From NCBI GenBank assembly GCA_963768425.1, contig CAVYHV010000022.1, positions 1 through 64,000 of the forward strand: DNA of 64,000 bases, given 5' to 3'. The translations under genes and the position numbers were made by a program. Shown here piece by piece: positions 9,299 through 39,550 of this stretch. A model generated the notes under the pieces. The model was given only the letters and a program-made list of their open reading frames with translations, did no database searches and was not told the DNA's origin. The stretch's first letter is position 1, and each line of letters begins with the position of its first letter. The stretch is from Candidatus Bathyarchaeota archaeon. Its GTDB lineage: Archaea > Thermoproteota > Bathyarchaeia > Bathyarchaeales > Bathycorpusculaceae.

Positions 9299-10367
9299 CT
9301 ATGTTCGCTTTCTAAGCCACACGACGGATCCGCCTAAAACAAATACGGTGAGTACTACAAGGATTCCAAGTACATCTGGCGGCAAAGTGTATGATCCGCT
9401 GTTTTGGGGTGGTGTGGAGGAAGGACTTGTGCGGGCAGTTGTTGTTGGGGGTTGCAGTTGAATTGCTGTCGGCGTTGGCGTGACGGTGGGTGTTGCTGTT
9501 GGCTGGGTGCCATTAACCCTTATTAGTACTGTGCTGTTGTCGGTTCCAAGTGAATCTGTCACTGTTAATGTTACGGTGTAATTTCCTGGATTATTAAAAG
9601 TGTAATTTGCGATCTTGCCTGTGAGGGTTTGTTGTGTGCCATCCGTAAATGTCCAAGTGTAGGTTGCATTGGCTCCACTTGAGACGGATTGTGATCCATT
9701 AAAGACTACTGTTGTTCCTACTGGTACAGTTTGCTCTGTGCCTGCGTTAGCGGTTGGAGGCCCAGGAAGTACAAGGGAAACTATGCTTGTTGAAAAGTAA
9801 GAAGCGGGAACTATTTGGGGGTGAGTAGCTACTTGGTTTGTATAGTTCCGCAATGGGAGGGGACCCGTCAAGATGACTGCACGCCGAAAGTTATTGGAGT
9901 TGATTGAGTTTGTCTTATTATTTGAAAGGTCATGGTTGCAAGGGTGCCGCTTCCGCTTGCGGAGTCATCCACGCCATTTGAAGATGTGGAGATGTCGCAG
10001 GCTAATTGCGCTAACTTTGTAAGTATCCTAGCTGAATTGCGCCTGTAATACGGTAATTGGGACAGGCATAAAAAGTGTTGTAGTATTGACTGGACAGGAA
10101 GCTTCCTTCTTGCTTGCTTATTAAAGTAAGGTAATTGGTGTCCCAGGTGACGTTAACCGCCCATCCCCAGAGGTTTTGAACATTAGAAATGTCGATGTTA
10201 ACGGTGAATTGTTCGTTAAGTTGGGTCGCGTTGTATGTTGCAGGATCTAGAAAAACAGAGGGGGATTGTTGAAGTCTGTGCAGATGCTGTTTGCTGTGTG
10301 TCGGAATTGTTGGGATTATCATGGCTGCGATCAGTATCAGGAGTAAGGCTCCGACTGTTTTTTTCAA
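9299..10367 (-). CDS. Cohesin-PKD-linker-transmembrane anchoring scaffoldin (frameshifted)
   Basis: Signal peptide, cohesin (EQFTVNIDISNVQNLWGWAVNVTWDTNYLTLISKQEGSFL), PKD domain (PPTANAG...TYTWTFTDG...NPGNYTVTLTVTD), PT-rich linker, C-terminal TM helix ending WLRKRT. Confidence 0.78.
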
Positions 10368-10368
10368 G

Positions 10369-11406
10369 TTATTTTTGGCTCTCCCAGTAGAGTATGTAGT
10401 CTGATAGGAAGAGGAAGAAGTCGTTCGCATCGATTTTGCCGTCATGACCAAGGTCACATGCAGTATTATAAGGTTGTCCAGAGTTGCTTGCAATGTATGC
10501 GCTCAGGAAAGATGAAGAAGTCCGAGGAGTCTACTGATGCCGTCTCCGTTAAAATCTCCTGCAGGGGTAGTTGGGATGTTGAATGATGTAGTCGCTGTGC
10601 CGTAGTAGCCTGACCAAGTTCCAGGAAACATACACTTGGTAGGTGCCACCTTTGGTATCATTACTGATGGAAGCGTGAATGTCATGCTGTAAGCGCCAGC
10701 ATTGCCGCTGTTGCTTGGCGCGGGACCTGTAGCGGGACTGTTTCCTGTGCCTTGCTGCGATTTGGAATGTGAAAGATTGTTCTGCGGCGAGTGGAATGCC
10801 GCCGTTCTGGGGAAAATCGGTGTAAACATCTGCATAGCCATAGGCCGTTCCAGAGTGCGCATCCGTTGGGATTGGAATGTTCCCGTTTCAAGCTGATTTG
10901 CGTCCTTGCCGATTTGAACTTGGGCTGTGTATAGTCCAAGTGGGACGCCGTTGCCATCGTATATGCTGATTGCAATTAAGACTAAGCGGGCTTGGTGGTC
11001 TTGGTTTGCGACTGTCATGGAGAAGTAGCCGTTGCCGTCGTTGTAGAAAGCCTGCTACAGGGTTGCCGTTTCCATCAGATGCGTAAGCAGACGAAATTTT
11101 TTCGGGCTCGCTAAATTCTGTTGCTGTGCCTGTTTCGATGGTTCTTAAAACCATGGGAACTGCTCGTCCGCTCGACTGGGTATAATATTTGTATTCCGAC
11201 GAGACCATCGCTTGGATTTTCGCTGTCTACGCCGTTATCAAGAGCGAAAGCGATCCACTAATTGTGATGGGCTGATAGAAATCGTAAGTTGTTGTCTGAT
11301 TTGTTGTTACTGTTAGATTTAGTGATGATGTTTGAGCATGTACTAATGCTGCACTTGAGATTATTAATATAAAAAGAAAAGAAAGGGATATGATTTTTGT
11401 TTTCAT
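10369..11406 (-). CDS. Secreted Ig-like protein with C-terminal dockerin (frameshifted)
   Basis: Signal peptide MKNKIISLSFLFILIISSAALVHA. Reconstructed C-terminus GDFNGDG...DFFIF...AYIA...NTACDLGHDGKIDANDFFLFLSDYILYWESQK* shows a duplicated Ca-loop/helix dockerin. Confidence 0.72.
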
Positions 11407-11415
11407 ATCTTATCA

Positions 11416-13639
11416 CTAACTTCCGTTGTATATGTATAGCGAAGCTTGTTGCTGTGGTGAGAATGCTAAGTCCGTTGTTTGCTGGTGTGTTGTTGAGTAT
11501 GTTGACATCGACGATATGCTGGTCCTACGAATGCCCATGTTGGAAGCGTTAAGCTCATGGTGTATGTCTGTCCGATATTGCCGCCTGCAACGTTTGGTGC
11601 TGCTGGGTGCAGTTTCCATCATTACTGTGCATGCGACTGGCACGTTATTTGCGTCGAAGACTGTTGCTGTCAGGTAGAATGTTGTTGGAGTCCAGTTGAA
11701 GCTGTAGACTGGTGCTGTAAGGGTTACAACGTTGAGTCCTGCATAGTTTCGGAAGAAGACTGGGCCTACGTTGTTGCTGTCATAGACGCCGTTGGTGATT
11801 GTTATGGGTTGTAGGCTAAGTGCGTATCCGTAGTAGAATTGGCATGTGTCAGTTAATGTTACTTGAGATACGTCGACTGATCCGGTCACTGTGACTATGC
11901 CGAAGTAGCTTGTTGGGTTGCTGTCTTGCCAGGGTAGTCTGTATGAGGTTGTTGCATATCCGTTTGCGTTTGTTGTTGCTGTGACTACGTCAATGTAAAC
12001 GCCGTTTAGGTATATGTCGAAGGTGACTGTTTTGAGTGCGACTGGTGCGCCGTTGAATGTTACGAGTGCTGTTAGGTCAACTAATTGTTGGGGTCCGAAT
12101 GCTGATGCTGGTTGATTGAGTCCTTGTCCGCCGTTTTGTGTCCAGATGTCGAGTATGCCGTTTGACCAGTTATTCCAGCCTGCTGGAAGCGGTGGAAGAA
12201 CTGTTAAACTGAATGTTGTGGTGCCGGTTTCTGTGTATGTTGGTGCTGGGGTGTTGGTTGGTGAGGGTGCTGTAACTGTTAAGGTTGCAGTTATTGTTCC
12301 TGGGGTCATGCCTACTTGAGCTGCTGTTAAGGCAACTGTTCGGTGTGCTTGCGGTCACTATTGTTCCGCCGATTAGGGTTATGCTCCAAGCGTATGTTGT
12401 GATTGGGCAGCTCTGTCCTGGTGGAATAGTGTTTTGGCCTGGTTGTGATGGTGTTCCGTCGAAGGTTATGGCGTAGTTTGTTAGAGTTTGGGTGTTGCCT
12501 GCGCCGAATGGACTTCCTTCAGTGGTTACTGACTGCTACTGGTCCTGTTGCAGCTGCTGGGGTCCATGAGTATGTTGCGCCTGTTAGGATTGGTGCTGGC
12601 GTTATTACTTGAGCTGGGAGAGCGTCGTTTACTGAGTTCCTGGGGTTCCTGCTGTGAGACCGAGGGCACTGTTGCCGTAGCTGAGGATTTGGAATGTTAA
12701 TGTGCATAAGTACGCCTGATGAGGCACTGTCGCTCATTTGTGTGCTGTATGCGTCGCTGATTCCTGCGTCAACTTTTCCTAGATAGTTGTCTATGAATCC
12801 TGGTGCGAACAATGTTGCGCCGCCTTGAACTTAGGTATGAGCCTTCGGTGACACCTGTGCATTCGAGTACGCTTGGATTCCATGTGACGCCTATGCTCCA
12901 TCCCCAAACATTGCCAAGGGCGCCGCTGATGTATGCATCAACGCTGAATGTTCCGCCGATTGGGTTGCTTGCAGATGGCCATGCAATGGCTGCATTTGTG
13001 GTTGATCCATGCTGGTACAGGTTAATGGTCGTTGATGGTGTTTGAACTGTGAGTGATCCGCTGTTGCATGTTACTGGGATGTGTGGAGAGCCTACGTCGC
13101 TTGTTGCAATCAAGTATCCGCCGTTGATGGTTATTGCACTGGTGCCGTAGCCAACCACGGTGAACGTCATAGTAATGACTACGCCTGCTGCGTCAGTTGA
13201 TTGATCTGCAGCTGTAATGGCTTGTGCTAAACCGCCTGAGATCGAGCCTGGATTGTCAACGTTGTCAAATAAGCTGCTTGAGGTTCCGGTGGTGGATACT
13301 GAGTCGCCGCCTGGTGCGTTGTCTGATAGGAATGGACCTGCTACAACTTTTGTCAATTGTACATACTGCTGTGTTCCAATTTACGGTGGGTATAGCCCAG
13401 CCCCAAATGTCGTTTGCGCCGCTGATGTAGATGTCGTACTTTACTGTTGTGCCGATTGGATTAGGGCTTGAAGGCACAGTAATGCTACTAACACTGGTTG
13501 ACCCTGATTGATATACACTAAAGGTGCCAGTGGTAGCTTGCGCGTGCACTGTACCCATTGCAAAGAACATTGACGCTAGCATAAAGAAAACTAGCGCCAA
13601 TGCTCCGATGCTTTTTTTGTTTGTTAGGTTTAGTTTCAT
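11416..13639 (-). CDS. Major two-cohesin scaffoldin / S-layer-like protein (frameshifted)
   Basis: Strong RBS (GGAAAGGAG), signal peptide ending VHA-Q, two cohesins (KYDIYISGANDIWGWAIPTVNWN; GGTFSVDAYISGALGNVWGWSIGVTWNPSVLECTGVTEGSYL), PKD-like and Ig-like modules. Starts about 30 bp after the pstS-dockerin gene. Confidence 0.78.
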
Positions 13640-13670
13640 TGTTTATTTCTCCTTTCCGTGTTTTTCGTCA

Positions 13671-15070
13671 TTATGACTTAGTGCTTAACCGTTTGTGGGT
13701 TGGAGCGTAGGTTGTGAAGTAGTAGACGTATTCACTCAAGAATGCCAAGAAGCTTCCGCCGTTGATTGTGCCTTGGGCTGTAATGTCTGCGTATGGGTTG
13801 TAAATGTGGTTCGCGTAGTATGCGATGTATGCGTCAGTGAAGTAGAAGAAGTCGTTTGCATCAACAGTCAATCTTGGAACAGTCTGAGTCTGACCAGCTG
13901 AGTGGTGTGTAGGGTCCGAGGGCTGAGTTCTAGAACTTGTCCGCCTGCCATTGCTGCGCGTGGCATTACCATGTAGTCGTTGTCTGAGACGAAGTTAGGG
14001 TTGCGGTTAGCCGTTGAAGCTGTAGAGTTATGCCTGCGTCGAGTTTCATGTAAGCGATCCATACTCCTTCTGCCAGGTTAGGGCCTGTGGTTGGAATGGT
14101 GTTTGGTGTTACTTCCCAGAGCCATCTGAATGGTGTGTATGTGCCTGCGATAACGTTAGCTTGTGATGGTGCATAGTAGCCTGCTGGTTGCTGGTGCTGG
14201 TAGGCTTGCATTGTATATGCTTAGTGGGATCATGATTGCCTCGTTTGTTAGGTAGTAGCCTAGTGAAATGAATGCGATGGTGTCAGTTGCGGTTGTTATG
14301 TCAGTTACGACATCTGGGTTGCCTTCAGCCAATGTGTATGGAGCCATGTATTGACTGCCGGTAACTGCGCCTGCAGTGTTTGTGGCTTCAGCGCTTGTTG
14401 CCAAGTTGTTTGCCAAAGAAGTTGTTGAAGCAATCGTATGTTCCTGAGGTTGGGTCTCTTACGATTCTGTTGATTGGGTCACTTGCGTGTGCTGCTGCAC
14501 CTGCTGGGAGGGTTCCGCCTGCTGCTGTGTATGCAGTGAAGAATTGTCCCCATGTAGTGTAGATTGGGCTTGTTCCTGCTGCGTCAGTGGATTCGAATAG
14601 TTGGCAAACTTGTTTAGCTGTAAGGTCAGTTGGAGCCCATGTCATGTCTGCGCTGTAAACTATGGCGACACTGTCAACGCCGACTGCCCAAATCTGGACG
14701 GTGCCTGCGTTTGATTGACCCCACTCTCCTATGGTTGGAGGTCTTGACATTTCACCAATGTCTGCAGTTGCAGTGCCTGTGGTGGGTAGAATAGCTGGGA
14801 ACGCTGTTCCACTGCCTAAGCCTGAATGTTCATTGTGTTGATGTCTAGAGCGCTTGTGGTGTCCCCAACTGGGGTTAGCAGCAACCAAGCGAGTTCCAAT
14901 AAGTTGGGAACGTCGCTGATGCTTCCTGTGGCTATGGGCAAGACGGTGCTTGAGCCAGCGATGCTGATCGTGTTCGGAGTAATCAAAGCATTTATCGGAA
15001 GAGCGGCTGCAGAAAAAGCGAGCATTGCGAGTACTAACAAAGATAATATTATTTTTTGGGTTTTATTCAA
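13671..15070 (-). CDS. pstS: Phosphate ABC transporter substrate-binding protein with C-terminal dockerin-like domain, copy 1 (frameshifted)
   Basis: PstS motifs IAGSSTVLPIA, GLGSG, DIGEMSRP, RDPTSGTYD. C-terminus VDANDFFYFTDAYIAY...NPYADITAQGTINGGSFLAFLSEY. Divergent from pstC/pstA. Confidence 0.82.
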
Positions 15071-15357
15071 TTTGTATTTCTCCTTTCATTATCTGTGAAC
15101 GAGAATTATTTCGTTCGAACTACTAATCGAGGGTTAAGCCATATCTAGCTTACTCGCTGTAGATTATGAGGAAAAATTTAGTCTATAGAAGAATCAATAG
15201 TTTACGATATGCATGGAAGAAGTATCAGTTGGCGAGTCGTTTCTAATTATTACTATTGATTATAAATAGAAAACCGTTATCTTTACGGTTCTCGCCCATT
15301 TCACACAGTTGAGAGGGAGCTATCCCGCCTTTTCAGGCAGGCTTTAAGGGATGAACA

Positions 15358-17823: not shown

Positions 17824-19430
17824 ATGAAAAATCGCGCATGCGCGCTAGGAAGAAAAAGGAAGAGCCAATTGGCTTGCGCATCATTGATTCTGCTTCTATC
17901 CCTCATCCTAATTCAATCAATCTACGCAATTCAAGTAACAAATGCCCAAAGCACAACTGCAAACGGTCAATGGGCATTAAGTTTCCAAATCCAAAAAGTT
18001 GGACAGAACACCACAAGCAACATCTTTACACCCTTTGACCAGATCCAACTGACAGCAAACGTAACCTACAGAAACGCAACCCAACCAGACATATTAGTAA
18101 CATTCAAAGTGCAGGGACCATCAAACGCCGCTAACCCAACAAATATCACAACAGTCGCAACAACAAACGCCACTGGCCAAGCAGAATCCGTCTTCAGACT
18201 TCCAGCAGATAACCAAAACGAAGATTCATCAATAGGAAAATGGCAGGCAACAGCAACCATACAAGCAGACAACAGCACCCTTCAGCAAAGCCTAAGTTTT
18301 ACAACTCAATGGAACCTCCAAATAACATCAATAAGCACCCAAAACTCACAAGGACAAAACCAAACAATCTTCTACCCAGGCAAAACAGTCACAGTCAAAC
18401 TAACAATCAGCAACAAGGGCAGCCTCAAGAAGCAAACGTCACACTCAACATGATGGATGCAACAGGAAAAACAATCAACCAAACACAAATCCAAAACACC
18501 CAAATAAACGCAGGTTCCAATTTAACTCAAGTAGAAACCGAACTCCAAATTCCAACAACGCAAACACAGGCGAAGCAACAATCAACGCAGCAGTATACTC
18601 AGGAACTTTTCAGAACATAAATGTACCAGCTGCTGAAAATCAAACCGCCTACTTCACAATAGCCACCAACACGGCACCCACAACCGACTCCTACGCCAAC
18701 GCCCATCTTAACCGAAAACTCAGTAAGCCTCTTCTCATGGCTGTTGGTAGCAACAGGATTATTCACATTCACATCTCTCTTTATGTTCCTCAGAAGAAAA
18801 CCAACTCCAGGAATTGGCACTCAAATGCCGAATCTGCCACCCACAATATCCAACCCAGCCGTGGCATCCCCACCAATTTTCCCGCCAAACGCACAAGAAA
18901 CAACACAAAAGCAACCAACACAACCCACAGCAATACCCACAACGAACCCAGAAAAAACAATCAACGCAGCGATGATAACTCAATTGCCCAGCATATATGA
19001 AACATTAGATATTCCAACACCAGAATCAACATCGCCTCAAGAACAAAAACAAATCATGGTGGATCACTTAACCAAAATCTCAAGCATCAACCAAAAAGTC
19101 CAAACTTTAGAAACAGAGCTTAAAATCGAAAAAGAACAACTTAACAAAGAAATAACGGATCTCAACAAAACACTTGATGAGCAAGAGAGAGCCGTAAAGA
19201 GCTACTTTGAATCAATAAGACAAGCAATATCAACAATAAACACTCAACCAACAGAAATTAACGATAAACAAAACCCGCCTCAATCAGAAATCAGTAACGA
19301 ACAAAACGCTCAACCAAAACAACAAAGCACCGAAGACAAAAACGCAAAGGAAACACAATCCAAAATTCAGAAACAACAACCTACACGGCAAGAAGACACA
19401 AAAACGTCAGAGCACACCAAAGAAGACTAA
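17824..19430 (+). CDS. Single-pass membrane protein: extracellular Ig-like modules, TM helix, cytoplasmic Pro-rich and coiled-coil tail (frameshifted)
   Basis: Signal peptide and a module FTPFDQIQLTANVTY...VTFKVQGP shared with the scaffoldins. TM segment (WLLVATGLFTFTSLFMFLRRK) followed by a heptad-rich region (KVQTLETELKIEKEQLNKEITDLNKTLDEQ). Confidence 0.65.
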
Positions 19431-21693: not shown

Positions 21694-23035
21694 CAGTAGA
21701 TGCGAATACTTATGGCTAGCTTTGCCTGATATCTTCTTGGGACAAGTTTGGATAATGTCTTCTTGAAGTTCAAGAGCTTTGTTCAAGAGCTTGTTTCGCC
21801 GATCTTCACTTTTCAAATGAAGCAGTATGCATGGTACCGAAAAGCCGACATCATTGATTTAATGCTCAGAGTAGCCCTCATGAATTGTTATGCTGAAGGA
21901 CTCACAAACGCACTTCGCAAACAAAAAGCTAAAAGAAAAAGCACGCCCACATCTGAGACTGCCCTAGCCTACCTTAAAACGCAAACCATCAATGACACCC
22001 TCCAAGTCGCCAGAACTCAGATTTTAAAATGCGTAACACTGTTTGCCAAAAAAAGACTAGTATTAACCAACGTCGCTATAGCGTTTGACTGGCACGATGT
22101 GCGATTCTACGGAAAACACAGTAAGGAAGGAGTAGTAGGCACCAAGCCTGAACGTGGAACAAGCTATGCCTACTGCTACCTTACCGTCAGCATCATCACG
22201 CCCGGCAAACGCCTTGTGCTTGCAGTCGTTCCGCTACTATCAAAAGATGAATTGTGGCAAATAGTTCTTCCGCTTCTTGACCAAGTACTGCAGAACGTCA
22301 AAGCAGTCTCCTACGTGGCCTTTGACAACGGTTTCCAAGACAGCAAGCTTCTGCAGGCGCTTATCGACCGCAACATTGGCTTCATTGTTCCTTTGCGTGA
22401 CACGGTTAAGCTGCGTAGGCGTTGGAGGTGGAAACGCTACCTCAAACGCTTCACGTACTGCACTAAAGGTGTCTGGGTTGACGTGGTTGAGGCTGTTGAC
22501 TCTAAGGGCACGCAGTATTTTCTTGGCACCAACCTGCCGGGGCGACCGAAGCGTGTTTTGAAGCTGTACAAGAAGCGTTGGGGCATAGAGACCAGCTATA
22601 GGGTGATTGGGCAGTTCTTGGCTAAGACAACTTGCGATGACTACTCGGTTAGGGTCTGGTATTTTGTTTTGGCTGTTCTGCTGTATAATGTGTGGGTTCT
22701 TCTAAACGCCCTGGGCAAAGGATCATGTCATCGTGGTGAGGCTGAAGCTTTTGTGCTTGTGGTCTTCGCCTGCTGTTTCATGCAAGCTGTCAGATTCGTT
22801 TGGATAACTGCTACCTTTGAGGTGTAGTGTGAGGCTTAAAGGCGAAATGATAGGTGACGTTTTCTTTTTCTTAAAGTCTTAGCTATGTTTTGTCTTGCCC
22901 CCTGTTTCTACAGGCTTGATGGCGCCACTCGACTGTAAAGTTCTCTAAAATAATTCGCAGCCAAAGTCTTCAGCGTCGCCCATTCAACCAAATCAAAAGG
23001 TCCAATCGAATTGTGCTAATTATTCGCATCTACTG
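21694..23035 (+). mobile_element. Complete IS element (ISH3-like family), 1342 bp
   Basis: Perfect 15-bp terminal inverted repeats CAGTAGATGCGAATA (21694-21708) and TATTCGCATCTACTG (23021-23035). 4-bp target duplication TCTA (21690-21693, 23036-23039). Confidence 0.92.
21748..22827 (+). CDS. DDE transposase (ISH3/IS4-like)
   Basis: IAFDWH, AFDNGF and YKKRWGIETSYR motifs. Enclosed by the TIRs. Confidence 0.9.
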   Translation: MDNVFLKFKSFVQELVSPIFTFQMKQYAWYRKADIIDLMLRVALMNCYAEGLTNALRKQKAKRKSTPTSETALAYLKTQTINDTLQVARTQILKCVTLFAKKRLVLTNVAIAFDWHDVRFYGKHSKEGVVGTKPERGTSYAYCYLTVSIITPGKRLVLAVVPLLSKDELWQIVLPLLDQVLQNVKAVSYVAFDNGFQDSKLLQALIDRNIGFIVPLRDTVKLRRRWRWKRYLKRFTYCTKGVWVDVVEAVDSKGTQYFLGTNLPGRPKRVLKLYKKRWGIETSYRVIGQFLAKTTCDDYSVRVWYFVLAVLLYNVWVLLNALGKGSCHRGEAEAFVLVVFACCFMQAVRFVWITATFEV

Positions 23036-24493: not shown

Positions 24494-24910
24494 TTGTCGA
24501 TAGTTATGCAGAGGAATTTAATGGGCGGGAATATAAGATTAGGGGCTTATGCTATTGATAGTAAAGTTACTTTCAAAACTGAACTTCATGACCCAATGCA
24601 TGCAATTAAACTTGACAAGGAAGTAAATGGTTATTGTCCATTGTGTGGATACTGGTCTATAAGCACTGATGTGATTATAGATTCTAAAACAGGTGAAAGA
24701 GGAGATATATGCCAAAATTGTGGCACAATATTCGATGCTTCAGCACTTGCATTCATGGATTCGCAAGTGTGCAAATGTGGGCATCCCAGAAACTACCACG
24801 ACAAAAGCTACCTAAACTGCAAAAAAGGGCATGAACAATCTGATTGCCAGTGCAGAAAATATGAACCAACACAGGTTACAATCACATCTTTAGCACAAAC
24901 GCAAAAGTAA
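24494..24910 (+). CDS. Cys/His-rich zinc-finger protein of unknown function
   Basis: CPLC...CQNC ribbon followed by CKCGH...H...C...CQC. Confidence 0.55.
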   Translation: MSIVMQRNLMGGNIRLGAYAIDSKVTFKTELHDPMHAIKLDKEVNGYCPLCGYWSISTDVIIDSKTGERGDICQNCGTIFDASALAFMDSQVCKCGHPRNYHDKSYLNCKKGHEQSDCQCRKYEPTQVTITSLAQTQK

Positions 24911-25057
24911 GAGAGACAAAATAACTGAAGTTACAGAAAATTAATTATGCAAACTACCTAAACTCCATAATTGAAACACTCCTTTTGGAGTTCTATCTAA
25001 CGCTTATCGTTCTCTAAGTATTTTAAAGATTAAAAGAGTTGACAAATAGGTAATTGA

Positions 25058-25936
25058 TTATTGATTAGAGTTAGCCCAGAAAGAAACATAGTCGGCCATG
25101 AAAACTAAGAAGTCAGATCCGTCGATCTTTCCATCGTTGTTTAGATCGCAAGCAGGGTCTAAAATCCTTTTTGTCTGGTAATCAATGTATGCTGACATAA
25201 AATAGAGGAAGTCTTGTCCATCAACAACTCCATCATGCGTGAAGTCGCCTGCTGGATATACTTTCAAAACAATGCTCGAATTACTGACCGTGTTGAACGT
25301 GTCACCACTGTAGATTGCTGTAATAGTCACTATGCCCGTCTTTGTATCATTGAAAGTTGTTGACGTGATGCCGGAACTCAGAGAAGACATGGGTGGATAG
25401 AAGCCACCCGTACTGTCGTTTGAGCTCCATGTTATGCTTCCGGTCGTGTTGTAGCCAGATACCGTTGCAGTCAAAGTAGTTATAGAATAGGCATTCAGGA
25501 CACTGGAAAAACTGACAACAGTTGTATTGGATTTAGTGATAGTCCTCACCTGAAAAGTGGTTGACGCTTTAACCGTAACCTGCGAGACGTCTGCCTGTGC
25601 TAAAACATTGTAAAAACCGGTAATGGTACCTGGGTCACTTCTAATCCGGAATTGCAAATCGCAGTTTCCGTTTAAGTCAGTACTAAGAGTTGTCGCAGTA
25701 ATCAGGTTGCCTGAGGGGTCAAATACCTGGACAGAAACTAACTTGCCAGCTATCGCTGCACCGTTACAGGTCAATGACCCATTTATCATCACTAAGCTGC
25801 CTAAAACGTACGCGGGCTTATCAGTCGATATTTTAAGGACGGCACCGTTATTTTCCGCAATCGCTTTGGGCAGTGCCACAACGAGGATGGACAAGCACAA
25901 GCAAGCAATTATTAATGATGATTTCTTCATACTCAA
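25058..25936 (-). CDS. Secreted Ig-like protein with C-terminal dockerin
   Basis: Signal peptide. Intact duplicated dockerin GDFTHDGVVDGQDFLYFMSAYIDY...DPACDLNNDGKIDGSDFLVFMADYVSFW. Confidence 0.85.
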   Translation of the reverse strand: MSMKKSSLIIACLCLSILVVALPKAIAENNGAVLKISTDKPAYVLGSLVMINGSLTCNGAAIAGKLVSVQVFDPSGNLITATTLSTDLNGNCDLQFRIRSDPGTITGFYNVLAQADVSQVTVKASTTFQVRTITKSNTTVVSFSSVLNAYSITTLTATVSGYNTTGSITWSSNDSTGGFYPPMSSLSSGITSTTFNDTKTGIVTITAIYSGDTFNTVSNSSIVLKVYPAGDFTHDGVVDGQDFLYFMSAYIDYQTKRILDPACDLNNDGKIDGSDFLVFMADYVSFWANSNQ

Positions 25937-26378: not shown

Positions 26379-27731
26379 TTAGTTAGTTGGAGCGTAGGTT
26401 GTGAAGTAGTGTACGTAGTAACTCAGGAATGCCAGAAAGCTTCCGCAGTTAATTGTGCCTTGTGCTGTTATGTCTGCATATGGATTGTAAACATGGTTCG
26501 TGTAGTATGCGATGTATGCGTCAGTGAAGTAGAAGAAGTCGTTCGCATCAACTACCAATCTTGGAACAGTCTGAGTCTGACCAGCTAACGGTGAATAATT
26601 GCCTAACGCTGAGTTCAGAACTTGGCCGCCTGCCATTGCCGCGCGTGGCATCGCCATATAGTTGTTGTCTGTGACAAAGTTCGGGTTGCTGCCAGCTGTA
26701 CCTGCGTCAGCCTTCAAGTAAGCAATCCATACTCCTTCTGCCAGGTTTGGACCTGTAGTTGGAATAGTGCTTGGTGTTACTTCCCAGAGCCATCTGTACG
26801 GTGTGTAAGTGCCCGCGATAACGTCTAGTTGCGACGGAGCAAAGTATCCTGCGCTGCCTGTTGGTGGACTAGCGTTGTAAATGTTTACGCTAATCATGCT
26901 GGTGGAGTATTCTAGAGCGATGGGCATCGGAACGAATGCGATTGAATCGTGTGAGGATGCAAGTGCTTCGGCGTATGTTTCTTGAGCATTGAGAATGGTG
27001 TATGGAGCCATATATTGACTGCCGGTAACTGCGCCTTGAGCATTCGTGGTTTCAGCGCTGTGACCAAGTTGTTCGCCGAAGAAGTTGTTCCAGCAATCGT
27101 AGGTTCCTGAAGTTGGATCCCTAATAATTCTGAAGATTGGGTCACTCATGTGCGTTTGAGCTGCTGTTGGAATTGCGCTTACGCTACCGTAGTATGCAGT
27201 TAAGAATTGTCCCCAAGTAGTGTAGATTGGATCTTGACCTGCAGCGTCGGTAGACTCGAATAGTTGAGCAACCTGCTTAGCGGTAAGATCTGTTGGAGCC
27301 CATGTCATATCTGGGCTGTAGACGTTTGCGATGCTGTCAATACCAATTGCCCAAATCTGGACGTTGCCTGCGTTTGATTGACCCCACTCAGCTACGGTTG
27401 GAGGTCTTGACATTTCACCAATGTCTGCAGTTGGGTTACCAGAAGCGGGTAAAATAGCTGGGAACGCCGTTCCGCTTCCCAAGCCTTGAATGTTCATAGA
27501 GCTGATATCTAGAGCGGCTGGGGTGCCCCAACTGGGGTTAGCAGCAACCAAGCTGTTCCAATAAGTTGGAAAAGTCGCGGATGCTTCTATCGCTATTGGC
27601 AAAACTGTGCTTGAGCCAGCGATGTTCAGATTGTTAACCGCGATTAAAGCATGTGCCGGAATTGCTGCTGAAGAAAATGCCACGATTACCAGCACCATTA
27701 TTGAAATCATTACTTTTGAGGCTCTATTCAA
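26379..27731 (-). CDS. pstS: Phosphate-binding protein PstS with C-terminal dockerin-like domain, copy 2 (intact)
   Basis: Same PstS motifs as copy 1 and highly similar DNA. C-terminus VDANDFFYFTDAYIAYYTNHVYNPYADITAQGTINCGSFLAFLSYY. Confidence 0.85.
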   Translation of the reverse strand: MNRASKVMISIMVLVIVAFSSAAIPAHALIAVNNLNIAGSSTVLPIAIEASATFPTYWNSLVAANPSWGTPAALDISSMNIQGLGSGTAFPAILPASGNPTADIGEMSRPPTVAEWGQSNAGNVQIWAIGIDSIANVYSPDMTWAPTDLTAKQVAQLFESTDAAGQDPIYTTWGQFLTAYYGSVSAIPTAAQTHMSDPIFRIIRDPTSGTYDCWNNFFGEQLGHSAETTNAQGAVTGSQYMAPYTILNAQETYAEALASSHDSIAFVPMPIALEYSTSMISVNIYNASPPTGSAGYFAPSQLDVIAGTYTPYRWLWEVTPSTIPTTGPNLAEGVWIAYLKADAGTAGSNPNFVTDNNYMAMPRAAMAGGQVLNSALGNYSPLAGQTQTVPRLVVDANDFFYFTDAYIAYYTNHVYNPYADITAQGTINCGSFLAFLSYYVHYFTTYAPTN

Positions 27732-27795: not shown

Positions 27796-28869
27796 TTATG
27801 CTGAAATAGTTATTTGTTGAGGTAGCGTTTGCATTCCAAGTGCTTCACCAACGATGTAGTAAGTGCAGGGTGACGCATGAAAAACTGGGCATGACAAAGT
27901 GGGAACGAGAAGGCAAGGACTAGCGCTTAAAGAGTTAAAATTGCAAACCTGATCCCACTCGAAACTCTGTGTGAAACTTGCACCTGGTAACAGAGAACGC
28001 TCCATGATGAACATGGGAAAAGCCTTTCCGTATGAATCTCGATATACTATTCCTGTGCTGTTGTAAACTATGTAATCAAAGAAACCGCCTGTGTAAGTGA
28101 AACTAATGGTTTTGTCGCTAACGTTGTTTACGCTTAATGTGAAATCAACTGGCTGGCCTACTGCGTAAACGGTCTGTGTAGTGGATAAGGTCAGCGTTAA
28201 CGTTAATGCGCCATTGTGAACAAAAGGAGTTGGACCAGCCCAATAGGCAATGTACGCATTCATAAACTCGAAGAAATCAGTTGCAGTAATGGCGCCATCA
28301 TGATCAAAATCTGCAGCAGGATTACATTGATGGCTACCGTCAAAGCTATTGTAGTCAATGTAGGCACTCGTGAACGCAAAAAAACTGTTAGAATCCACTT
28401 CACCTTGATCAGTTAAATCACCAAGGCAATTCACCGTTATCGTGCTACCCGTACAGCTGTCGCCTGTAGAAGTGGTTGCCCCGGCAATAGAAGAAGCAGT
28501 TGCGCTCAAAACATAGTCGCCTAAAGCGAAACCAGTGGTATTCCACGCGGTGGATGCAACCGCTGAGCCTCCGCTTGGTAAAGTAACAGCTTGAGTACTG
28601 ACAGGGATGTCGTTAACAGAAAATGTAACGGTACAGCTGACCGGTGAAGAACCAGAATTTTCTATATTAGCTGTAAGGGTTGCCGAAAAGCCCTGTTCAA
28701 CGAAAGACTGAGAACAAGCCACTTCAGTAACAATTATGCTATTCACTGTACTACTACTCGAATTAGCAAGCTGGGCGTCACCCCAAAGTTTTGTCTCAGA
28801 AAACGGCAAGAGAATGCTTGCTACAAAAACAATCAGAAGAAACATACACAGATGCTTTTTCAAAGCCAT
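27796..28869 (-). CDS. Secreted CARDB-like + dockerin + BsuPI-like Ig-domain protein
   Basis: CARDB-like region (TANIENSG...WNTTGFALGDYVLSA). Internal dockerin GDLTDQGEVDSNSFFAFTSAY...NPAADFDHDGAITATDFFEFMNAYIAYW. C-terminal YAVGQPVDFTLSVNN...FDYIVY...YRDSYGKAF...LLPG...FEWDQ. Confidence 0.75.
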   Translation of the reverse strand: MALKKHLCMFLLIVFVASILLPFSETKLWGDAQLANSSSSTVNSIIVTEVACSQSFVEQGFSATLTANIENSGSSPVSCTVTFSVNDIPVSTQAVTLPSGGSAVASTAWNTTGFALGDYVLSATASSIAGATTSTGDSCTGSTITVNCLGDLTDQGEVDSNSFFAFTSAYIDYNSFDGSHQCNPAADFDHDGAITATDFFEFMNAYIAYWAGPTPFVHNGALTLTLTLSTTQTVYAVGQPVDFTLSVNNVSDKTISFTYTGGFFDYIVYNSTGIVYRDSYGKAFPMFIMERSLLPGASFTQSFEWDQVCNFNSLSASPCLLVPTLSCPVFHASPCTYYIVGEALGMQTLPQQITISA

Positions 28870-30183: not shown

Positions 30184-30733
30184 ATGGGTTTTATGCAAGA
30201 AATAGAAGTCAAAATTTTAGAGATTGACCGAAAAAAGATTGAGAAAACTCTAACGGATCTGGGTGCAGAAAAAATCTTTGACGGCGGCATCCAAACCATT
30301 TTCTTCGACTTTGAAGACGGAAGAATAGTCAAGGCAAAAGATGTTTTGCGCCTAAGAAAAGAAGAAGACAAGGTTGAATTAACGTTACAAAAAAGTTCGC
30401 TTCACACAATCTGCTAAAACTGCTGAGGAATATTCTGTTGACGTCTCAAATCTGGAGACTGTGAAGATAATTTTGGAGAACCTTGGGCTGTCTGTTAAAG
30501 AGAGTATGGAGAAACATAGAGTTAGCTACATGCTTGATCACGTACGTTTTGATATTGACCGCTACTTTGGCAGCTATGCTTACATTCCGGAGTTTATGGA
30601 GATAGAAGCGGATCCTGACTTAATCCACAAGTACGCCGAGCTTTTGGGCTTTAAAAAAGAGGATTGCCTGCCATGGTCCACTATCGAGTTGATCCAGCAT
30701 TACTCAAGAAATGAAGCCAAGAACAGAAATTAG
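30184..30733 (+). CDS. CYTH-domain (CyaB-like) triphosphate tunnel metalloenzyme (one frameshift)
   Basis: EIEVK N-terminal motif, LRLRK, KHRVSY, FDID, FMEIE. Confidence 0.85.
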
Positions 30734-31242
30734 GGAGTTTTCTGTGTTTCAACGGTAGCTTTTGCAGGTTTGGCGGTTTTGGGTTTAGCGGTTTTGGGGG
30801 AGCGTTTTGCTTTCGCAACTTTTTTCTCGGGCGAGGCAGCTTTCTTAGGGCTTTTGGCAGTTTTTTTGGCTGGACTATTCCAAGCAGGGTATTTGCCGTG
30901 TTCTTTCTTGAAGCTCTCCAGCAGCTCTTCCTGCGCCGCCTTCGGATCTTCAGTCAGCATCCAGCTGACCCCGACTTTTTCCATGTAGCCATCATCAAGT
31001 AGCATTGCGTTGATTTTTCTTGTTATTTTTCCGCCGTATCCGGCTAGGTAGCCGCCGAAGATTCTTTTGTTGAGTTTCTTTGTTTTGCCGATATAGAGGA
31101 TGTCTGAGTCAGTTTTTCCTGTGGGCAAGCTGTCAACTAAGATTAAAACTGTGCTTTTGTTGAGTGGGAGGCTGGAAAACGGTAGGTTTTTCAAAGAAAC
31201 GGATTCTGAGAAGCCTTTTTCTTTAAGAGTTAAAGAATTCAT
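30730..31242 (-). CDS. GIY-YIG-like protein with Lys/Ala/Pro-rich tail, copy 1
   Basis: DILYIGKT...KRI...QEELL...EHGKYPAWN, followed by SPAKKTAKSPKKAASPEKK... Confidence 0.7.
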   Translation of the reverse strand: MNSLTLKEKGFSESVSLKNLPFSSLPLNKSTVLILVDSLPTGKTDSDILYIGKTKKLNKRIFGGYLAGYGGKITRKINAMLLDDGYMEKVGVSWMLTEDPKAAQEELLESFKKEHGKYPAWNSPAKKTAKSPKKAASPEKKVAKAKRSPKTAKPKTAKPAKATVETQKTP

Positions 31243-31557: not shown

Positions 31558-33700
<2,143 letters not shown>

Positions 33701-33717
<17 letters not shown>

Positions 33718-36058
33718 GACGAAACCATGCGAAACTGACCTAAGCTACTGTAGATTCGGTTGCGAAACAATGCTAACGCAACTTGATGCTTTTGAGCAAC
33801 TAATTGATGGAGTGCTAAAAAGCAGCGACATCGAATACGTACATAGAATGCGGGTTGGTTCCCGCAGAATCAGAGCAGTGCTGCCTATTTTCAGGGTCTG
33901 CTTTCCCAAAAAAGACTATAAAAAATGGCGGCGAGAAATAAAAGAAGTGACTCGTCTTCTTTCTAACGCCAGAGACCTAGATGTTCAAATAGCTTTTATA
34001 GAGCAATACAAAGAAAACCTAAAGCCAACGGCAGGAAAAACAGGCCTTGATTTACTTCTCAGACAACATAAAGAACAAAGAAAAAGAATTCAATCGTCCG
34101 TAGTTAATGGTTTAGAAAAGCTGATTGCAAGCTGCATTTTGAAAGATATGCGAAGTTTTTGCTTACAAACCGTAAAAGAGCAAGCAAACTCAACTTTTAA
34201 CCGCGAAATTGTGCTGGAGAAAGCGCATTGGCACATATCCACCAGATTAGACGATTTCTTGGGGATGGAAGAATATGTTTACATTGAAAACGAGACTCTA
34301 AAGCACCATCAGATGAGGATATGCGCTAAAAAACTTCGTTACACACTGGAACATTTTGCGTCGCTCTACCCAAACAAGCTCGCTGGAGAAATAGAAAGAA
34401 TAAAAGCGTTTCAAGATGTACTCGGCGAAATGCATGAGTGTGACATTTGGATAGATTATATCCCAAAATTCATAACGGAAACAAAAAACAAAATACGATC
34501 GGAGAAAAACAAGAAAACAGCCCCTGCAAAAGTTGAGCTTGAACTTTCGAACTTCTTGACATTTATAAGACAAAAAAGAAAAGAGCATTATAGCCAATTT
34601 GTCCAACTTTGGAATAAAACCAAAAAAGAAGCGTTTTTTACTCAACTTAAAAAGACAACTGGCGTTGGATTAGAAATTGGAGAACAAAAAATTAGGCAGG
34701 CCCTCATGAACCCAGATATTAAAATTGCTGCCATATCCGATGTTCACGCAAACCTGCAAGCTTTAGAAAGAGTAATTCAGGATGCTGAAGAGAGGGGCGT
34801 AGATGTTTTTCTGAATGCTGGTGACTCAGTAGGGTTTGGACCTTTCCCAAACGAAGTAATTGAACTTCTTTGCGAAAAAAACGTTTTAAGCGTTGTTGGG
34901 AACTATGACCTTGAAGTTATTGAGGGCAAGACTAAAGAGAAAAACGAAAAAAACCTCGCTTTAAGATTTGCGAGAAAAGAGTTGTCAAACGCTTGTGTAG
35001 AATATCTTCATTCGCTGCCTCGCGAACTCACGTTTGAAGTCGCAGGCAAAAAACTGCTGGTGACTCATGGAAGCCCCGAGTCAATTGATGAACACATTTA
35101 CCCTGACATGCCGGTTGAGCGTTTAGAAACGCTTTCCAACACCGCCAAAGCTGAAGTAATAGTCATAGGTCACTCTCATCAACAACTAATGCGACAGGTA
35201 AATGGAACCTCATTCGTTAACCCTGGAAGCGTTGGAAGACCTGGCGACGGAAACCCGCAGGCAGCTTACGCAATATTGGAGTTTAACCCGTTCAAAGTTG
35301 AGATGATTCGGCTCGATTATGACATTTCAGCAGCCGCAGACGCTCTTCGGAAAAAATCGTTACCTGAAAGTTTCTCCCAGATGCTTCTCCAAGGCGTATC
35401 TCTTGGAACAATAATCGAAGAAGATACCACAAGAGAAAACGATGCAACCAAAAACCGCAAATATATAATCCAAGCCTGCAAAGAATTTGCGGGTGGACAT
35501 TGGGATGATTCGGAACATTATTCCCAAGTTACTAAACTTGCTTTAAAGTTCTTTGACGCTCTAACCGATGTCCATAAGTTGGGTGAGCAGGAAAGATGCT
35601 GGCTCGAATATGCTGCAATTCTGCACGATGTTGGATTATCGAAAAGTATGGGTGGTCACCATAAAGAATCAGCTAAACTCATCCTCAACGCTACCCAATT
35701 GCCCTTCTCATCCAAAGAAAGACGTATAGTAGCAAGCACCGCCCGCTATCACAGAAAAGGATTGCCCAAACAAAAACACTATAACCTCAGATCGCTAGAC
35801 CGGCACACGGTAAATACAATAAATATTTTAGCTGGTCTGCTGCGGGTTGCCGACAGCTTAGATTATGCACACCAATCAAATGTGAAAGCTTTGAATTTCA
35901 AGGTGGGTGCCAAAAAGATAATTGCCGAATGCTTATGCGAAGGGCAATCAATCTTGGAGCAGCAGGCTTTTAATAAGAAGAAAGATTTGTTTGAAAGGGT
36001 CATGGCAAAGAAATTGGTGCTATCATGCAAGACACAGCAAAAAACGCTGAACACGTAG
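33701..36058 (+). CDS. CHAD-metallophosphoesterase-HD fusion protein, copy 1
   Basis: CHAD (EYVHRMRVGSRRIR, RDLDV, HQMRICAKKLRY, QDVLGEMHECD), YfcE-like MPP (ISDVHAN, GD, GNYD, HGSP, GHSH, NPGSVG) and Ppx-C-like HD domain (AILHDVG...RYHRK...LRVADSLD). Confidence 0.88.
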
Positions 36059-37605: not shown

Positions 37606-37636
37606 TGCGTGGGAAGCTGTTTATTCTTTTTCAAGC

Positions 37637-38524: not shown

Positions 38525-38751
38525 CTAAAACAGCCCCATTGAGAATAGGTTACAGTGCCTAATAATGGCTACTCTACAGATCAGACAGCCATATCATTGG
38601 GAGCTAACCCAAAAACATGCCAAGAAAATAGTGCGTAATTGCTAAACAGCAACAAAACAAAGCAAATGTTACTTGTAAAAAGCCTATAAGAAAAAAAGAG
38701 TCTCAATAACCAAGAGAAAAAAGGAGAGAAGTAAGCTATCGGTATTTTTTG

Positions 38752-39369: not shown

Positions 39370-39550
39370 ATTTCACTAAGAACTGCTAGAAGGATTTAAC
39401 TATTTCTAAGCCTTAAAACTAGCAATTTACGCGTCGGCGATCTTGGAGTTGTTTATATCTTGATTTTGTTTTCATCGCAAAGCAACACTTTTTTGGAAAC
39501 AATAAAAAATAAACCGCTGAAGTTTGCCATCAACCCTCGAGGCGTTTGAG

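Follow-up and report, generated by a model that had tools for sequence, protein, structure and literature searches.

The window analysed here is the whole 64,000-nucleotide stretch of contig CAVYHV010000022.1, from an uncultured Bathyarchaeia archaeon. It contains two paralogous genes for a predicted PstS-type binding protein with a C-terminal dockerin-homologous module. Copy 1, the gene under study, is intact, while copy 2 lies in a pst locus towards the left end of the window. Copy 1, its parts and its neighbours are as follows.

25058..25936, minus strand: downstream neighbour, an MG2/Ig-like protein with a canonical dockerin (Dockerin_1, E 3.8e-6).
26379..27731, minus strand: copy 1, the intact PstS-dockerin gene (open reading frame of 450 aa, TTG start).
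26382..26579, minus strand: dockerin-homologous module, residues 385-450, with two helix repeats (hhalign against local canonical dockerins).
26439..26474, minus strand: repeat-2 loop DITAQGTINCGS, residues 420-431, with T at position 3, Q at 5 and S at 12, i.e. no calcium ligands.
26538..26573, minus strand: repeat-1 loop QTVPRLVVDAND, residues 387-398, with R391 and L392 at the usual D and G positions.
26607..27635, minus strand: predicted divergent PstS-type binding domain, approximately residues 33-375 (conserved columns, alignments to 4pqj, 4omb and 4jwo, and the PBP-1 ligand list).
27648..27731, minus strand: signal-peptide-like N-terminus, residues 1-28, comprising MNRASK, a hydrophobic core and AHA before L (sequence and hydropathy; cleavage predicted).
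27796..28869, minus strand: upstream neighbour, a CARDB - internal dockerin - BsuPI protein, with the same pairing in the related locus L004.

The database copy of the copy 1 protein, P0001, starts at an internal ATG (M8) and is 443 aa long. Scans for sigma-70-type promoters and terminators around copy 1 were uninformative, the host being an archaeon. A polyphosphate gene cluster is located 4-14 kb away.

Archaeal binding proteins are usually anchored through a lipobox or a transmembrane helix, and a cell without an outer membrane must retain its binding protein. The copy 1 protein belongs neither with the lipoproteins nor with the proteins that end in a transmembrane helix and basic tail. Its N-terminus displays basic residues (R3, K6), a hydrophobic stretch of 18 residues (KD19 maximum 2.45) and A-H-A preceding L29, which agrees with the cleavable-looking signal peptide proposed in an earlier, sequence-only reading of this DNA; cleavage, judged by eye, is likely. 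Among the 96 family members whose N-terminus is complete, 89 have a signal-peptide-like h-region, with AxA-like ends that vary. By motif search none of these 96 carries a lipobox, and in the copy 1 protein no Cys is present upstream of the first PBP motif. By hydropathy, a C-terminal hydrophobic stretch is found in none of the 111 family clusters, the KD19 maximum being 0.83 in the copy 1 protein and 1.35 in the family. The earlier statement that copy 1 has neither lipobox nor transmembrane-plus-basic tail therefore holds across the family, and the value of 0.83 speaks against a transmembrane helix in the C-terminal segment of copy 1.

Pfam places the copy 1 protein in no family, even at E<=10, and the NCBIfam model TIGR02136 gives it 36.1 bits (E 3.8e-9), far below the cut-off of 206.6; scores within the Bathyarchaeia family range from 36 to 61 bits. 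A single-sequence PDB search with the copy 1 protein returned only a chance match to glycinin (E 1.2), and phmmer with the PBP domain retrieved 77 representatives among 1.84 billion. A profile built from 70 family members matched 12 PDB sequences, every one of a phosphate-binding or PstS-type protein (best E 8e-15). PF12849 is precomputed on many relatives, and the orthologs in L001, L002, L005, L006 and L008 exceed its cut-off of 27. Within the 70 sequences the ligand columns G32, S33, S79, D96, S201 and G202 (P0001 numbering) are invariant, and S34, T35, R197 and T203 are at least 90% conserved; the conserved residues of copy 1 itself (450-aa numbering) are S40-S41-T42, S86, D103, R204 and S208-G209-T210. 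The phosphate-ligand motifs occur in the order GSST, GSG, D and R-x3-SGT, a correspondence at motif level only, and the conserved motif columns match the ligand set of C. perfringens PBP-1 as given in the part of PMC5381212 consulted. The core of the domain holds about 100 residues of insertions relative to solved PstS structures. Because Pfam is silent and TIGR02136 is below its cut-off, the PstS assignment rests on the family profile and gene context. The binding domain of copy 1 is probably a highly divergent PstS type, with phosphate as the presumed ligand. The name PstS, applied earlier to copy 1, can be kept in this qualified sense, being backed by family profile, ligand motifs and gene context but not by Pfam or the TIGR02136 score.

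The C-terminal 66 aa of the copy 1 protein match the local dockerin pattern in an ungapped alignment, as the sequence-only reading had noticed, and hhalign of the family module alignment (A5) against 12 local dockerins (A6; 11 of the 12 match Pfam Dockerin_1) gives 99.7% over 56 columns (E 3.2e-26). Two tandem loop-helix repeats homologous to those of dockerins are present in the copy 1 module. Pfam assigns the module to no family at E<=1 and NCBIfam dockerin_GC scores 17.9 bits on the copy 1 protein, below the cut-off of 29; among 17 related family modules, seven themselves match Dockerin_1.

An EF-hand-like calcium loop (D-x-[DN]-x-[DN]-G and D at position 12) is absent from both repeats of copy 1. 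The first loop reads TVPRLVVDAND in copy 1 and TVPRLTVDAND in copy 2, so that the alteration reported for both copies stands; the second loop, at T3, Q5 and S12, is degenerate too. The change in the first loop is not special to the two copies, however, since D or N occurs at positions 1 and 3 of the repeat-1 loop in 0 of 106 family members. The RL variant of that loop is carried by 7 of the 106, a clade in which the usual residues are missing from positions 5 and 6 as well. Position 12 of the repeat-2 loop has no acidic residue in 27 of 107 members, all seven RL members included, and calcium ligands are thus missing from both loops throughout this seven-cluster clade. At the metal sites there is Arg in loop 1 and there are neutral residues in loop 2, as a calcium-free dockerin could have them. 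In known dockerins, loss of calcium ligands is expected to destabilise the fold. The seven-cluster clade with ligand-free loops is still under purifying selection: module dN/dS is approximately 0.075-0.21, lower than that of the PBP domain (0.22-0.34) in six of six pairs. Of 20 positions compared, the two repeats of the copy 1 module share 4 and those of canonical members a median of 12; no repeats in the family are less symmetric than those of copy 1.

The family of copy 1 comprises 111 related Bathyarchaeia clusters, in which the PstS-dockerin fusion is the rule, and the module is also C-terminal in 21 of 27 further full-length representatives. The search for this architecture, suggested along with the first description of copy 1, has thus returned a family-wide fusion; a PstS with a dockerin is also listed in the portion of S4 Data of Chadwick et al. 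2022 consulted. Three clusters (P0119, P0173 and P0111) contain PstS-dockerin-cohesin fusion proteins. These fusions do not identify the partner of the dockerin, because a dockerin beside cohesins may bind a different cohesin type. In the tree, the duplication that gave copy 1 and copy 2 predates the split from the L004 organism, and the largest fragment of copy 2 clusters with L004:19113-20504. The pstCA-cohesin locus holds copy 2 and not copy 1. Its features in the window are the following.

9299..10367, minus strand: ortholog of a membrane-anchored cohesin-PKD protein, frame-broken (C-terminus ...VVWLRKRT after a hydrophobic stretch).
10372..11406, minus strand: ortholog of a protein of approximately 330 aa that carries a canonical dockerin; its frame is broken.
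11419..13639, minus strand: frame-broken gene immediately downstream of copy 2, ortholog of a secreted protein of approximately 740 aa with two cohesins (12769-13380 matches Pfam Cohesin at E 2.4e-6).
Approximately 13674..15070, minus strand: copy 2, the paralog that occupies the ancestral pstCA/cohesin locus; its reading frame is broken in the assembly, with pieces in three frames.
15256-16241, plus strand: pstC-like permease, frame-broken (tblastn), divergent from copy 2.
16255-17652, plus strand: pstA-like permease, frame-broken (tblastn), divergent from copy 2.
17824..19364, plus strand: third gene of the permease operon, whose product crosses the membrane once and has an Ig/MG2-like ectodomain; one frame break.

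The family gene and pstC/pstA are back-to-back in 15 of 17 related loci, copy 1 itself not being beside pstCA. Permeases of L002 are above the NCBIfam equivalog cut-offs, with 197.5 against 196.45 for PstC and 207.2 against 193.45 for PstA. No pstB is located within 10 kb in 16 of the 17 loci, and none in the window. The third gene of the operon was considered as pstB and rejected, its product being a single-pass membrane protein, and a cohesin concealed in the N-terminal extension of PstA was likewise rejected, since the extension consists of extra transmembrane helices. The two-cohesin protein is encoded downstream in 12 of the 14 loci having downstream sequence, and the transmembrane-anchored cohesin-PKD protein in all 13 loci that extend 3 kb or more downstream. 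In L002, the gene at 11442-13649 carries two cohesins and that at 14652-15725 one. The family profile of the cohesin-PKD protein (A9) matches cohesins of known structure (3l8q_A, E 7e-10). With its own profile (A3) the two-cohesin protein has no PDB match at E<=0.1, and its cohesin assignment comes from Pfam together with hhalign to A9. Orthologs with the RL-type module that are beside pstCA (L001-L003 and L004b) are directly upstream of the cohesin genes.

The explanation that best joins these observations, and one that appears rather likely, is that copy 1 encodes a Sec-exported divergent PstS whose dockerin-derived module would serve as its anchor through a cohesin of the pst locus. The product would be exported by Sec with a two-helix, dockerin-derived C-terminus in place of a lipid or transmembrane anchor, and the module would most likely plug into a cohesin on a surface protein encoded in the pst locus of the lineage. 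Candidate partners are the cohesin-PKD protein, predicted to be held in the membrane by a C-terminal transmembrane helix and basic tail, and the secreted two-cohesin protein encoded beside the pstS gene. Docked in this way, the binding protein would stay on the cell surface, close to the PstC/PstA permease. That the dockerin replaces the anchor, as first proposed from the sequence, is well supported by context, namely the family-wide fusion, the pstCA synteny, the cohesin neighbours, the direct fusions and the lack of any other anchor; cohesin binding itself, the choice of cohesin and calcium independence are what we infer. Docking is probably calcium-independent, since both loops are free of ligands yet the module is conserved, and probably one-sided, since the two repeats have diverged. 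A single binding mode, suggested earlier from the asymmetric loop, may apply, its one basis being the repeat identity of 4/20 against the median of 12/20. Copy 1 is the older-duplicated paralog 'a', gone from the pstCA locus and now behind the CARDB-dockerin-BsuPI gene, and probably serves the same scaffold as an additional phosphate binder under different regulation. Weighing against this account are the absent or sub-cut-off model scores of both domains, the ligand-free loops, the position of copy 1 away from pstCA and its missing pst upstream element, the lack of a nearby pstB and the broken frames of all cohesin genes in the window. A wider proposal is put forward tentatively: a clade with a naturally calcium-free, single-orientation dockerin, together with the transmembrane-anchored cohesin-PKD and two-cohesin proteins, could form a docking station over PstCA, a 'transportosome' conserved across Bathyarchaeia.

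Other readings differ in what the two ends of the protein do. The module could descend from a dockerin but have lost cohesin binding, and act instead in self-association, with another envelope partner or as a stabilising cap, leaving copy 1 free or otherwise retained. The calcium ligands missing from both loops, the silence of Pfam on the module, the low symmetry of its repeats (4/20) and the distance of copy 1 from the cohesin operon would all fit. This is nevertheless unlikely given that the helix faces (DFFYFxDAYIAYY / SFLAFxSxYVxYF) are near those of canonical local dockerins, that the module is under tighter purifying selection than the PBP domain, and that the RL-type orthologs of L001-L003 and L004b immediately precede cohesin genes. 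Alternatively, the N-terminal hydrophobic segment could be an uncleaved signal anchor and the dockerin could recruit cohesin-bearing proteins to the transporter, for which the h-region of about 18 residues is long enough to span the membrane. Its classic n-h-c layout, in which A-H-A puts small residues at -3 and -1 just before the mature PBP begins, and the recurrence of the layout with varied AxA-like ends in 89/96 members make such an anchor improbable.

As to the ligand, another oxyanion or a phosphorylated compound instead of orthophosphate would fit the extreme divergence from canonical PstS, which is seen in the 36 bits against a cut-off of 206.6, in the 77 phmmer representatives and in the approximately 100 residues of core insertions; with the phosphate-binding positions invariant or nearly so (the Asp of the short hydrogen bond included), neighbouring permeases at equivalog level and polyphosphate genes 4-14 kb away, this is very improbable. 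More doubtful is the state of the left part of the window, where copy 2 and the first 21 kb could be real pseudogenes of a decaying pst-cohesin locus, which would leave copy 1 as a relic, an orphan with neither transporter nor scaffold. Between about 1 and 21 kb, each gene with homology support is divided among several frames, the window's cohesin genes are all frame-broken, and genes to the right of about 21 kb are mostly intact. Copy 2 differs from its intact ortholog L004:19113-20504 by 10 internal indels, nine of them not multiples of three; the earlier claim of two copies is thus upheld as to homology and the loop TVPRLTVDAND, but the second copy is frame-broken. Homopolymer errors were rejected as the source of these frameshifts, the indel contexts not being homopolymers. 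Read in the frame of the ortholog, however, copy 2 has no stop codon in 454 codons and a dN/dS of 0.23, equal to that of intact copy 1, and in the frames of the L004 orthologs pstA and the third gene have no in-frame stops and pstC has one. Beyond the left part, two further genes, cdhA (59195-61586) and one at 30193-30742, are each split once, which indicates assembly indel errors, and in the closest MAG all these genes are intact. Decay of the locus is therefore possible but on the whole not the expected case.

Dockerin-tagged binding proteins are not a new principle, being in print for ANME archaea with one PstS-dockerin protein among them. In the parts of Chadwick et al. 2022 (PLoS Biol, PMC9012536) consulted, dockerin-bearing substrate-binding proteins of the NikA/OppA and TroA types are described for ANME archaea, and S4 Data includes an ANME-2a protein, HOHHFJHI_01811, with 252.9 bits for TIGR02136, PF12849 and, at residues 284-339, a type I dockerin repeat domain. 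Copy 1 likewise joins an ABC binding-protein domain to a dockerin at the C-terminus, in an archaeon with many cohesin and dockerin proteins. The ANME PstS in that supplement is canonical and above the TIGR02136 cut-off, whereas the Bathyarchaeia family is far below it at 36-61 bits, so the two fusions probably arose independently. In Bathyarchaeia, in contrast to the ANME entries consulted, the fusion is family-wide, the operon includes pstCA and anchored cohesins, and calcium ligands are gone in the RL clade; family-wide fusion, a pstCA-cohesin operon and calcium-ligand loss are not mentioned in the text portions and supplement rows of PMC9012536 consulted. A literature search, covering its sources in part, yielded no account of a PstS-dockerin family in Bathyarchaeia or of calcium-free dockerins.

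Compared with canonical PstS of PstSCAB systems (PDB 4pqj, 4omb, 4jwo and 4gd5), the copy 1 protein has the type-2 periplasmic-binding-protein pattern and the phosphate-ligand motifs, and pstC/pstA are neighbours in the orthologous locus, though copy 1 lies apart from the genes for the permease. It differs in its roughly 100 extra residues, its C-terminal docking module and the lack of a lipid or transmembrane anchor and of a nearby pstB. Like type I cellulosome dockerins (PF00404; 1ohz_B, 2ccl_B), the module is a C-terminal tandem of loop-helix repeats of about 60-70 aa on a secreted protein with cohesin genes nearby; unlike them, it lacks the usual residues of loop 1 at positions 1 and 3 (and in the clade also 5 and 6) and those of loop 2 at 3, 5 and 12, has no Pfam match, and has a transporter binding protein as cargo in place of an enzyme. 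The retention problem is the same as for lipobox- or TM-anchored archaeal binding proteins, but the anchor here would be non-covalent and modular, with the transmembrane helix on a separate cohesin-PKD protein. The design as such is thus known from ANME archaea, and what appears distinct here is the loss of the usual calcium sites of the module. If docking is real, a whole archaeal class would attach its high-affinity phosphate receptor via a cohesin-dockerin plug from the permease locus, and non-cellulosomal cohesin-dockerin pairs would gain a concrete, testable function. A dockerin conserved after loss of both calcium sites may also be of interest to users of protein-connector modules.

The region upstream of copy 2 is also conserved. 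This pst-type element is absent upstream of copy 1 and has no match in Rfam, and its features, taken from alignment, are these.

15071..15255, minus strand: conserved upstream region of copy 2, with the 13-mer ATAGWCTAAWTWG, a hairpin and an SD.

The gene that drew attention in the sequence-only reading, here called copy 1, is annotated as follows.

26379-27731, minus strand: copy 1, an ORF of 450 aa with a TTG start

The same protein is present in the protein collection as P0001, beginning at an internal ATG (443 aa). Relatives' sequences open with MNK or LNK plus basic residues where copy 1 has its TTG, and thus translation more probably starts at the TTG, giving the longer form with R3 and K6. 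At the N-terminus a basic n-region is followed by an 18-residue hydrophobic core and by A-H-A ahead of L29, consistent with the cleavable-looking signal peptide that had been proposed, with predicted cleavage before L29. The reported lack of a lipobox Cys also holds, as inspection of the sequence found no Cys ahead of the first binding-protein motif. The last 45 residues give a maximum 19-residue Kyte-Doolittle mean of only 0.83, under the yardstick of 1.6 that TM helices of neighbouring proteins exceed; a C-terminal TM helix, which the reading had named as evidence against itself, is thus not supported by hydropathy. Copy 1 very likely belongs to the PstS family, carries a tail derived from a dockerin and lacks any other anchor.

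Identification of copy 1 as PstS is not obtained by routine annotation. Pfam returned no family even at E<=10, a PDB search with the single sequence gave nothing beyond a chance match, and NCBIfam TIGR02136 matched at E 3.8e-9 with only 36.1 bits (cut-off 206.6). The identity is settled instead by family evidence, namely the annotation of relatives and a family profile. A word-indexed search gave 111 related clusters at E<=1e-3, many carrying precomputed PF12849 and the JGI name phosphate-transport binding protein. The profile built from 70 of these 111 (fragments and a number of long, insertion-rich members, picked by eye, were omitted) matched 12 PDB sequences at E<=0.01, all phosphate-binding or PstS-type, the top ones being 4pqj, 4omb and 4jwo (E ~1e-14). 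Conservation is complete or reaches at least 90% in the columns G39-S40-S41-T42, G85-S86-G87, D103, R204 and S208-G209-T210 (numbered on the 450-aa form). They agree in order and spacing with the phosphate ligands listed for C. perfringens PBP-1 in the relevant section of PMC5381212 (S11, T12, S13, S41, S59, R125, S129, G130 and T131), S59 being Asp in most PstS. When the binding domain by itself was run in a full phmmer scan against 1.84 billion representatives, only 77 proteins reached E<=1e-3; on these searches the family is an isolated, divergent branch of PstS.

The tail was compared using 17 C-terminal PstS modules from the window and fetched loci and 12 canonical dockerins from neighbouring genes. 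Pfam Dockerin_1 matches 11 of the 12 canonical dockerins (best E 2.9e-11). Among the 17 PstS modules, searched individually, 7 match it too; the module of copy 1 matches no Pfam family at E<=1. Aligned by hhalign, the two sets match at 99.7% (E 3.2e-26, 56 columns), in keeping with the resemblance to the local dockerin pattern noticed earlier, and the PstS-module profile gave only weak PDB matches, to EF-hand proteins and dockerins (E 0.002-0.4). The copy 1 tail is, by homology, a dockerin.

Calcium loops were counted in those family members in which the NPYxD linker is retained (107 of 111). In loop 1, neither position 1 nor position 3 ever carries D/N (0 of 106 members); D/N occupies position 5 in 77, and all 106 have D at position 12. 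A canonical loop 2 is seen in 70 of 107; position 12 is non-acidic in 27, every one of which also lacks D/N at position 5. A group of seven clusters that includes the window protein (P0001-P0006 and P0020, the RL clade) has P-R-L in loop 1 where others have P-D-G, and loop 2 is degenerate in all seven. The earlier description of copy 1 was largely right, its altered first loop being correct; the degenerate second loop had been overlooked. The RL clade is not decaying: Nei-Gojobori dN/dS of the module (0.075-0.21) is lower than that of the binding domain (0.22-0.34) in 6/6 pairs. Of 20 positions compared between the two repeats, a median of 12 are identical where loop 2 is canonical (n=77). The median falls to 9.5 for the other members whose position 12 is non-acidic (n=20) and to 6 for the RL clade (n=7), in which the window protein is lowest at 4. 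These counts are the sole quantitative support for the idea that the module is asymmetric and may have a single binding mode.

A scan of species-representative genomes gave 17 related loci, 15 of them labelled Bathyarchaeota or Bathyarchaeia MAGs. The other two, L007 and L008, carry bacterial MAG labels (Acidoferrum, Limnocylindrales) yet have the Bathyarchaeia pst-cohesin gene order, and their contigs are probably mis-binned. Gene order was derived from Pfam on 66 ORFs (7 loci) and from tblastn of seven proteins of locus L002 against all loci and the window. A single arrangement emerges. On one side pstC, pstA and the gene for a single-pass membrane protein form a divergent operon; on the other are pstS-dockerin and genes for a ~740-aa secreted two-cohesin protein, a ~330-aa canonical-dockerin protein and a ~360-440-aa cohesin-PKD protein, often followed by further cohesin proteins. 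In the window this arrangement surrounds the paralog, copy 2.

9299-10367, minus strand: anchored cohesin-PKD gene, end ...VVWLRKRT, downstream of copy 2
10372-11406, minus strand: dockerin gene, downstream of copy 2
11419-13639, minus strand: two-cohesin gene, downstream of copy 2
~13674-15070, minus strand: copy 2, at the ancestral site in the pstCA/cohesin locus
15256-16241, plus strand: pstC, other side of copy 2
16255-17652, plus strand: pstA, other side of copy 2
17824-19364, plus strand: third operon gene, other side of copy 2

Genes for pstC/pstA adjoin the matched gene in 15/17 loci; the remaining matches, L004:9980 and L015, represent second paralogs that lie 7-9 kb away from a pstC/pstA-type locus. 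The L002 permeases exceed their NCBIfam equivalog cut-offs (PstC 197.5 vs 196.45; PstA 207.2 vs 193.45), and PstA has ~150 additional N-terminal residues with extra TM helices. pstB was found in L007 alone (388 bits); a scan for Walker A plus LSGGQ was negative in the other 16 loci (within 10 kb) and in the window. The third operon gene (L002:5923-7383, minus strand; window 17824-19364, plus strand), considered as pstB, proved to encode a single-pass membrane protein whose ectodomain is Ig/MG2-like and whose cytoplasmic tail is a coiled coil; 15/17 fetched loci have homologs.

The two-cohesin protein comes next in 12 of 14 loci having downstream sequence, and the cohesin-PKD protein is found in 13/13 with at least 3 kb downstream. 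The latter combines a signal peptide with an S/T/P-rich linker and a hydrophobic stretch near the C-terminus, and its end, ...WLRKRT, is conserved. Its family profile matches solved cohesins (3l8q_A, E 7e-10; also 3fnk, 4u3s, 2bm3 and 2b59) and aligns with the cohesin region of the 740-aa protein at 99.2%. Together with small cohesin-linker-TM proteins, also present in L008 and L010, this indicates that a membrane-anchored cohesin is encoded in the pst locus.

Among longer proteins, P0119 (1121 aa) and P0173 (865 aa) were found which, with P0111, carry the PstS tail module followed by a linker and one or two cohesins; P0173 ends at a contig edge, within a cohesin. Residues 605-884 of P0119 align to both cohesins of the L002 740-aa protein (40% identity, E 2e-41) and P0111 to cohesin 1 (54% identity, E 9e-45). 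Pfam reports Cohesin in P0119 (E 2.3e-15) and a laminin-G/ConA-like C-terminal domain in P0119 and P0111. In cellulosomes, adaptor scaffoldins have a dockerin beside cohesins to which it does not bind. The fusions link the PstS-dockerin and cohesin proteins to one assembly and do not identify the dockerin's partner cohesin.

In the proposed mechanism the PstS-dockerin protein would be exported by Sec with cleavage of its signal peptide, its binding domain would capture phosphate, as motifs and neighbours suggest, and its tail would be held non-covalently by the cohesin of a surface protein encoded at the locus. The simplest tether would be the anchored cohesin-PKD protein, as its long linker and TM helix would keep the binding protein within PstCA reach; the secreted two-cohesin protein would serve as an alternative or intermediate. 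Sequence and selection suggest that docking in the RL clade would be calcium-independent. The mechanism as a whole, from export through phosphate capture to cohesin docking, calcium-free in the RL clade, is somewhat favoured, and replacement of the anchor by the dockerin is plausible given the strong gene context.

Chadwick 2022 (PMC9012536) describes dockerin-bearing substrate-binding proteins in ANME archaea, and one entry in its supplement, an ANME-2a protein, combines TIGR02136, PF12849 and a dockerin repeat domain, so the architecture itself is not new; Timmers 2017 (PMC5244752), where it treats these domains, describes cohesin and dockerin domains as abundant in ANME, function unknown. 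Literature searches turned up no mention of the Bathyarchaeia PstS-dockerin family, of its cohesin operon or of calcium-free dockerins, although a listing in bioRxiv or PDF supplements could have escaped. Three elements are new here: fusion throughout the family, an anchored cohesin in the operon, and a loss of both calcium sites that has been conserved.

Two copies had been claimed, and a paralog is indeed present, but copy 2 is frame-broken, distributed over three frames. Compared with its intact ortholog L004:19113-20504 in the closest MAG locus, it has 89.3% nucleotide identity and 10 internal indels, 9 not multiples of three and none in homopolymers. In the reading frame of that ortholog, copy 2 shows 0 stops over 454 codons and a dN/dS of 0.23, equal to copy 1. 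All other homology-supported genes in ~1-21 kb are also frame-broken; in 21-64 kb most genes are intact, cdhA and one small gene having a single break each. In the frames of L004 orthologs, copy 2, pstA, the third gene and pstC have dN/dS of 0.23-0.39; pstA and the third gene, like copy 2, have no in-frame stops, and pstC has one. We lean towards region-specific assembly indel errors in window 1-21000 as the source of the breaks; they may otherwise reflect very recent decay.

In L004 both paralogs are intact and occupy the two corresponding positions. A maximum-likelihood tree built from 19 rows has two clades, copy 1 clustering with L004:9980 and P0020 (support 99/96) and the largest copy-2 fragment with L004:19113, L001 and P0005 (97/98); the duplication therefore predates the split of the window and L004 organisms. 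Copy 1 sits 64 nt after a CARDB-dockerin-BsuPI gene, as in L004. DNA identity between the copies is a mosaic, from 47-55% up to 92-93% in 60-nt windows. The highest values fall within the dockerin part and at two N-terminal stretches, a pattern suggestive of gene conversion from one copy to the other.

The pstC-pstS intergenic DNA is conserved across loci though their PstS proteins are only 30-60% identical.

15071-15255, minus strand: conserved pst upstream region, from comparison with the pstC-pstS intergenic DNA of L001-L017

It contains a ~47-nt block, the 13-mer ATAGWCTAAWTWG and, just ahead of the SD, a 5-bp hairpin (GAACG...CGTTC) that is compensated in L007. The 13-mer occurs twice on one strand, ~50 bp apart, in L009, L011 and L016, three times in L005 and ahead of both PstS copies in L014; within the window its sole occurrence (15174-15186, one mismatch) precedes copy 2, and the conserved region is missing ahead of copy 1. 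Rfam gave no match to the region, which is a candidate regulator site or leader.

Further features of the window are as follows.

21748-22827, plus strand: DDE transposase (IS), between mannosyltransferase and PQQ-propeller genes
31558-41996: polyphosphate gene cluster, 4 kb from copy 1
42880-42982, minus strand: tRNA of 103 nt (Rfam 42.9 bits; not reported by ARAGORN)
59195-61586, minus strand: cdhA (CO dehydrogenase/acetyl-CoA synthase alpha), split into two overlapping ORFs

The polyphosphate cluster comprises ppk1, CHAD-metallophosphoesterase-HD, ppx/gppA, ppk2, a second CHAD-metallophosphoesterase and an HD protein; in L001 and L004, too, a few kb separate ppk1 from the PstS genes. The tRNA probably contains an intron. 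The cdh operon is otherwise intact and adjoins ftr and purine-synthesis genes. In L004 no gene separates the mannosyltransferase and PQQ-propeller genes, and an extra MG2-dockerin gene and Cys-rich small ORF of the window (24494-25936) are absent after L004 copy 'a'. Synonymous divergence from L004 orthologs is uneven among neighbouring genes (mannosyltransferase 0.16, copy 2 0.29, copy 1 0.73, ppk1 1.7), which hints at recombination between related lineages.
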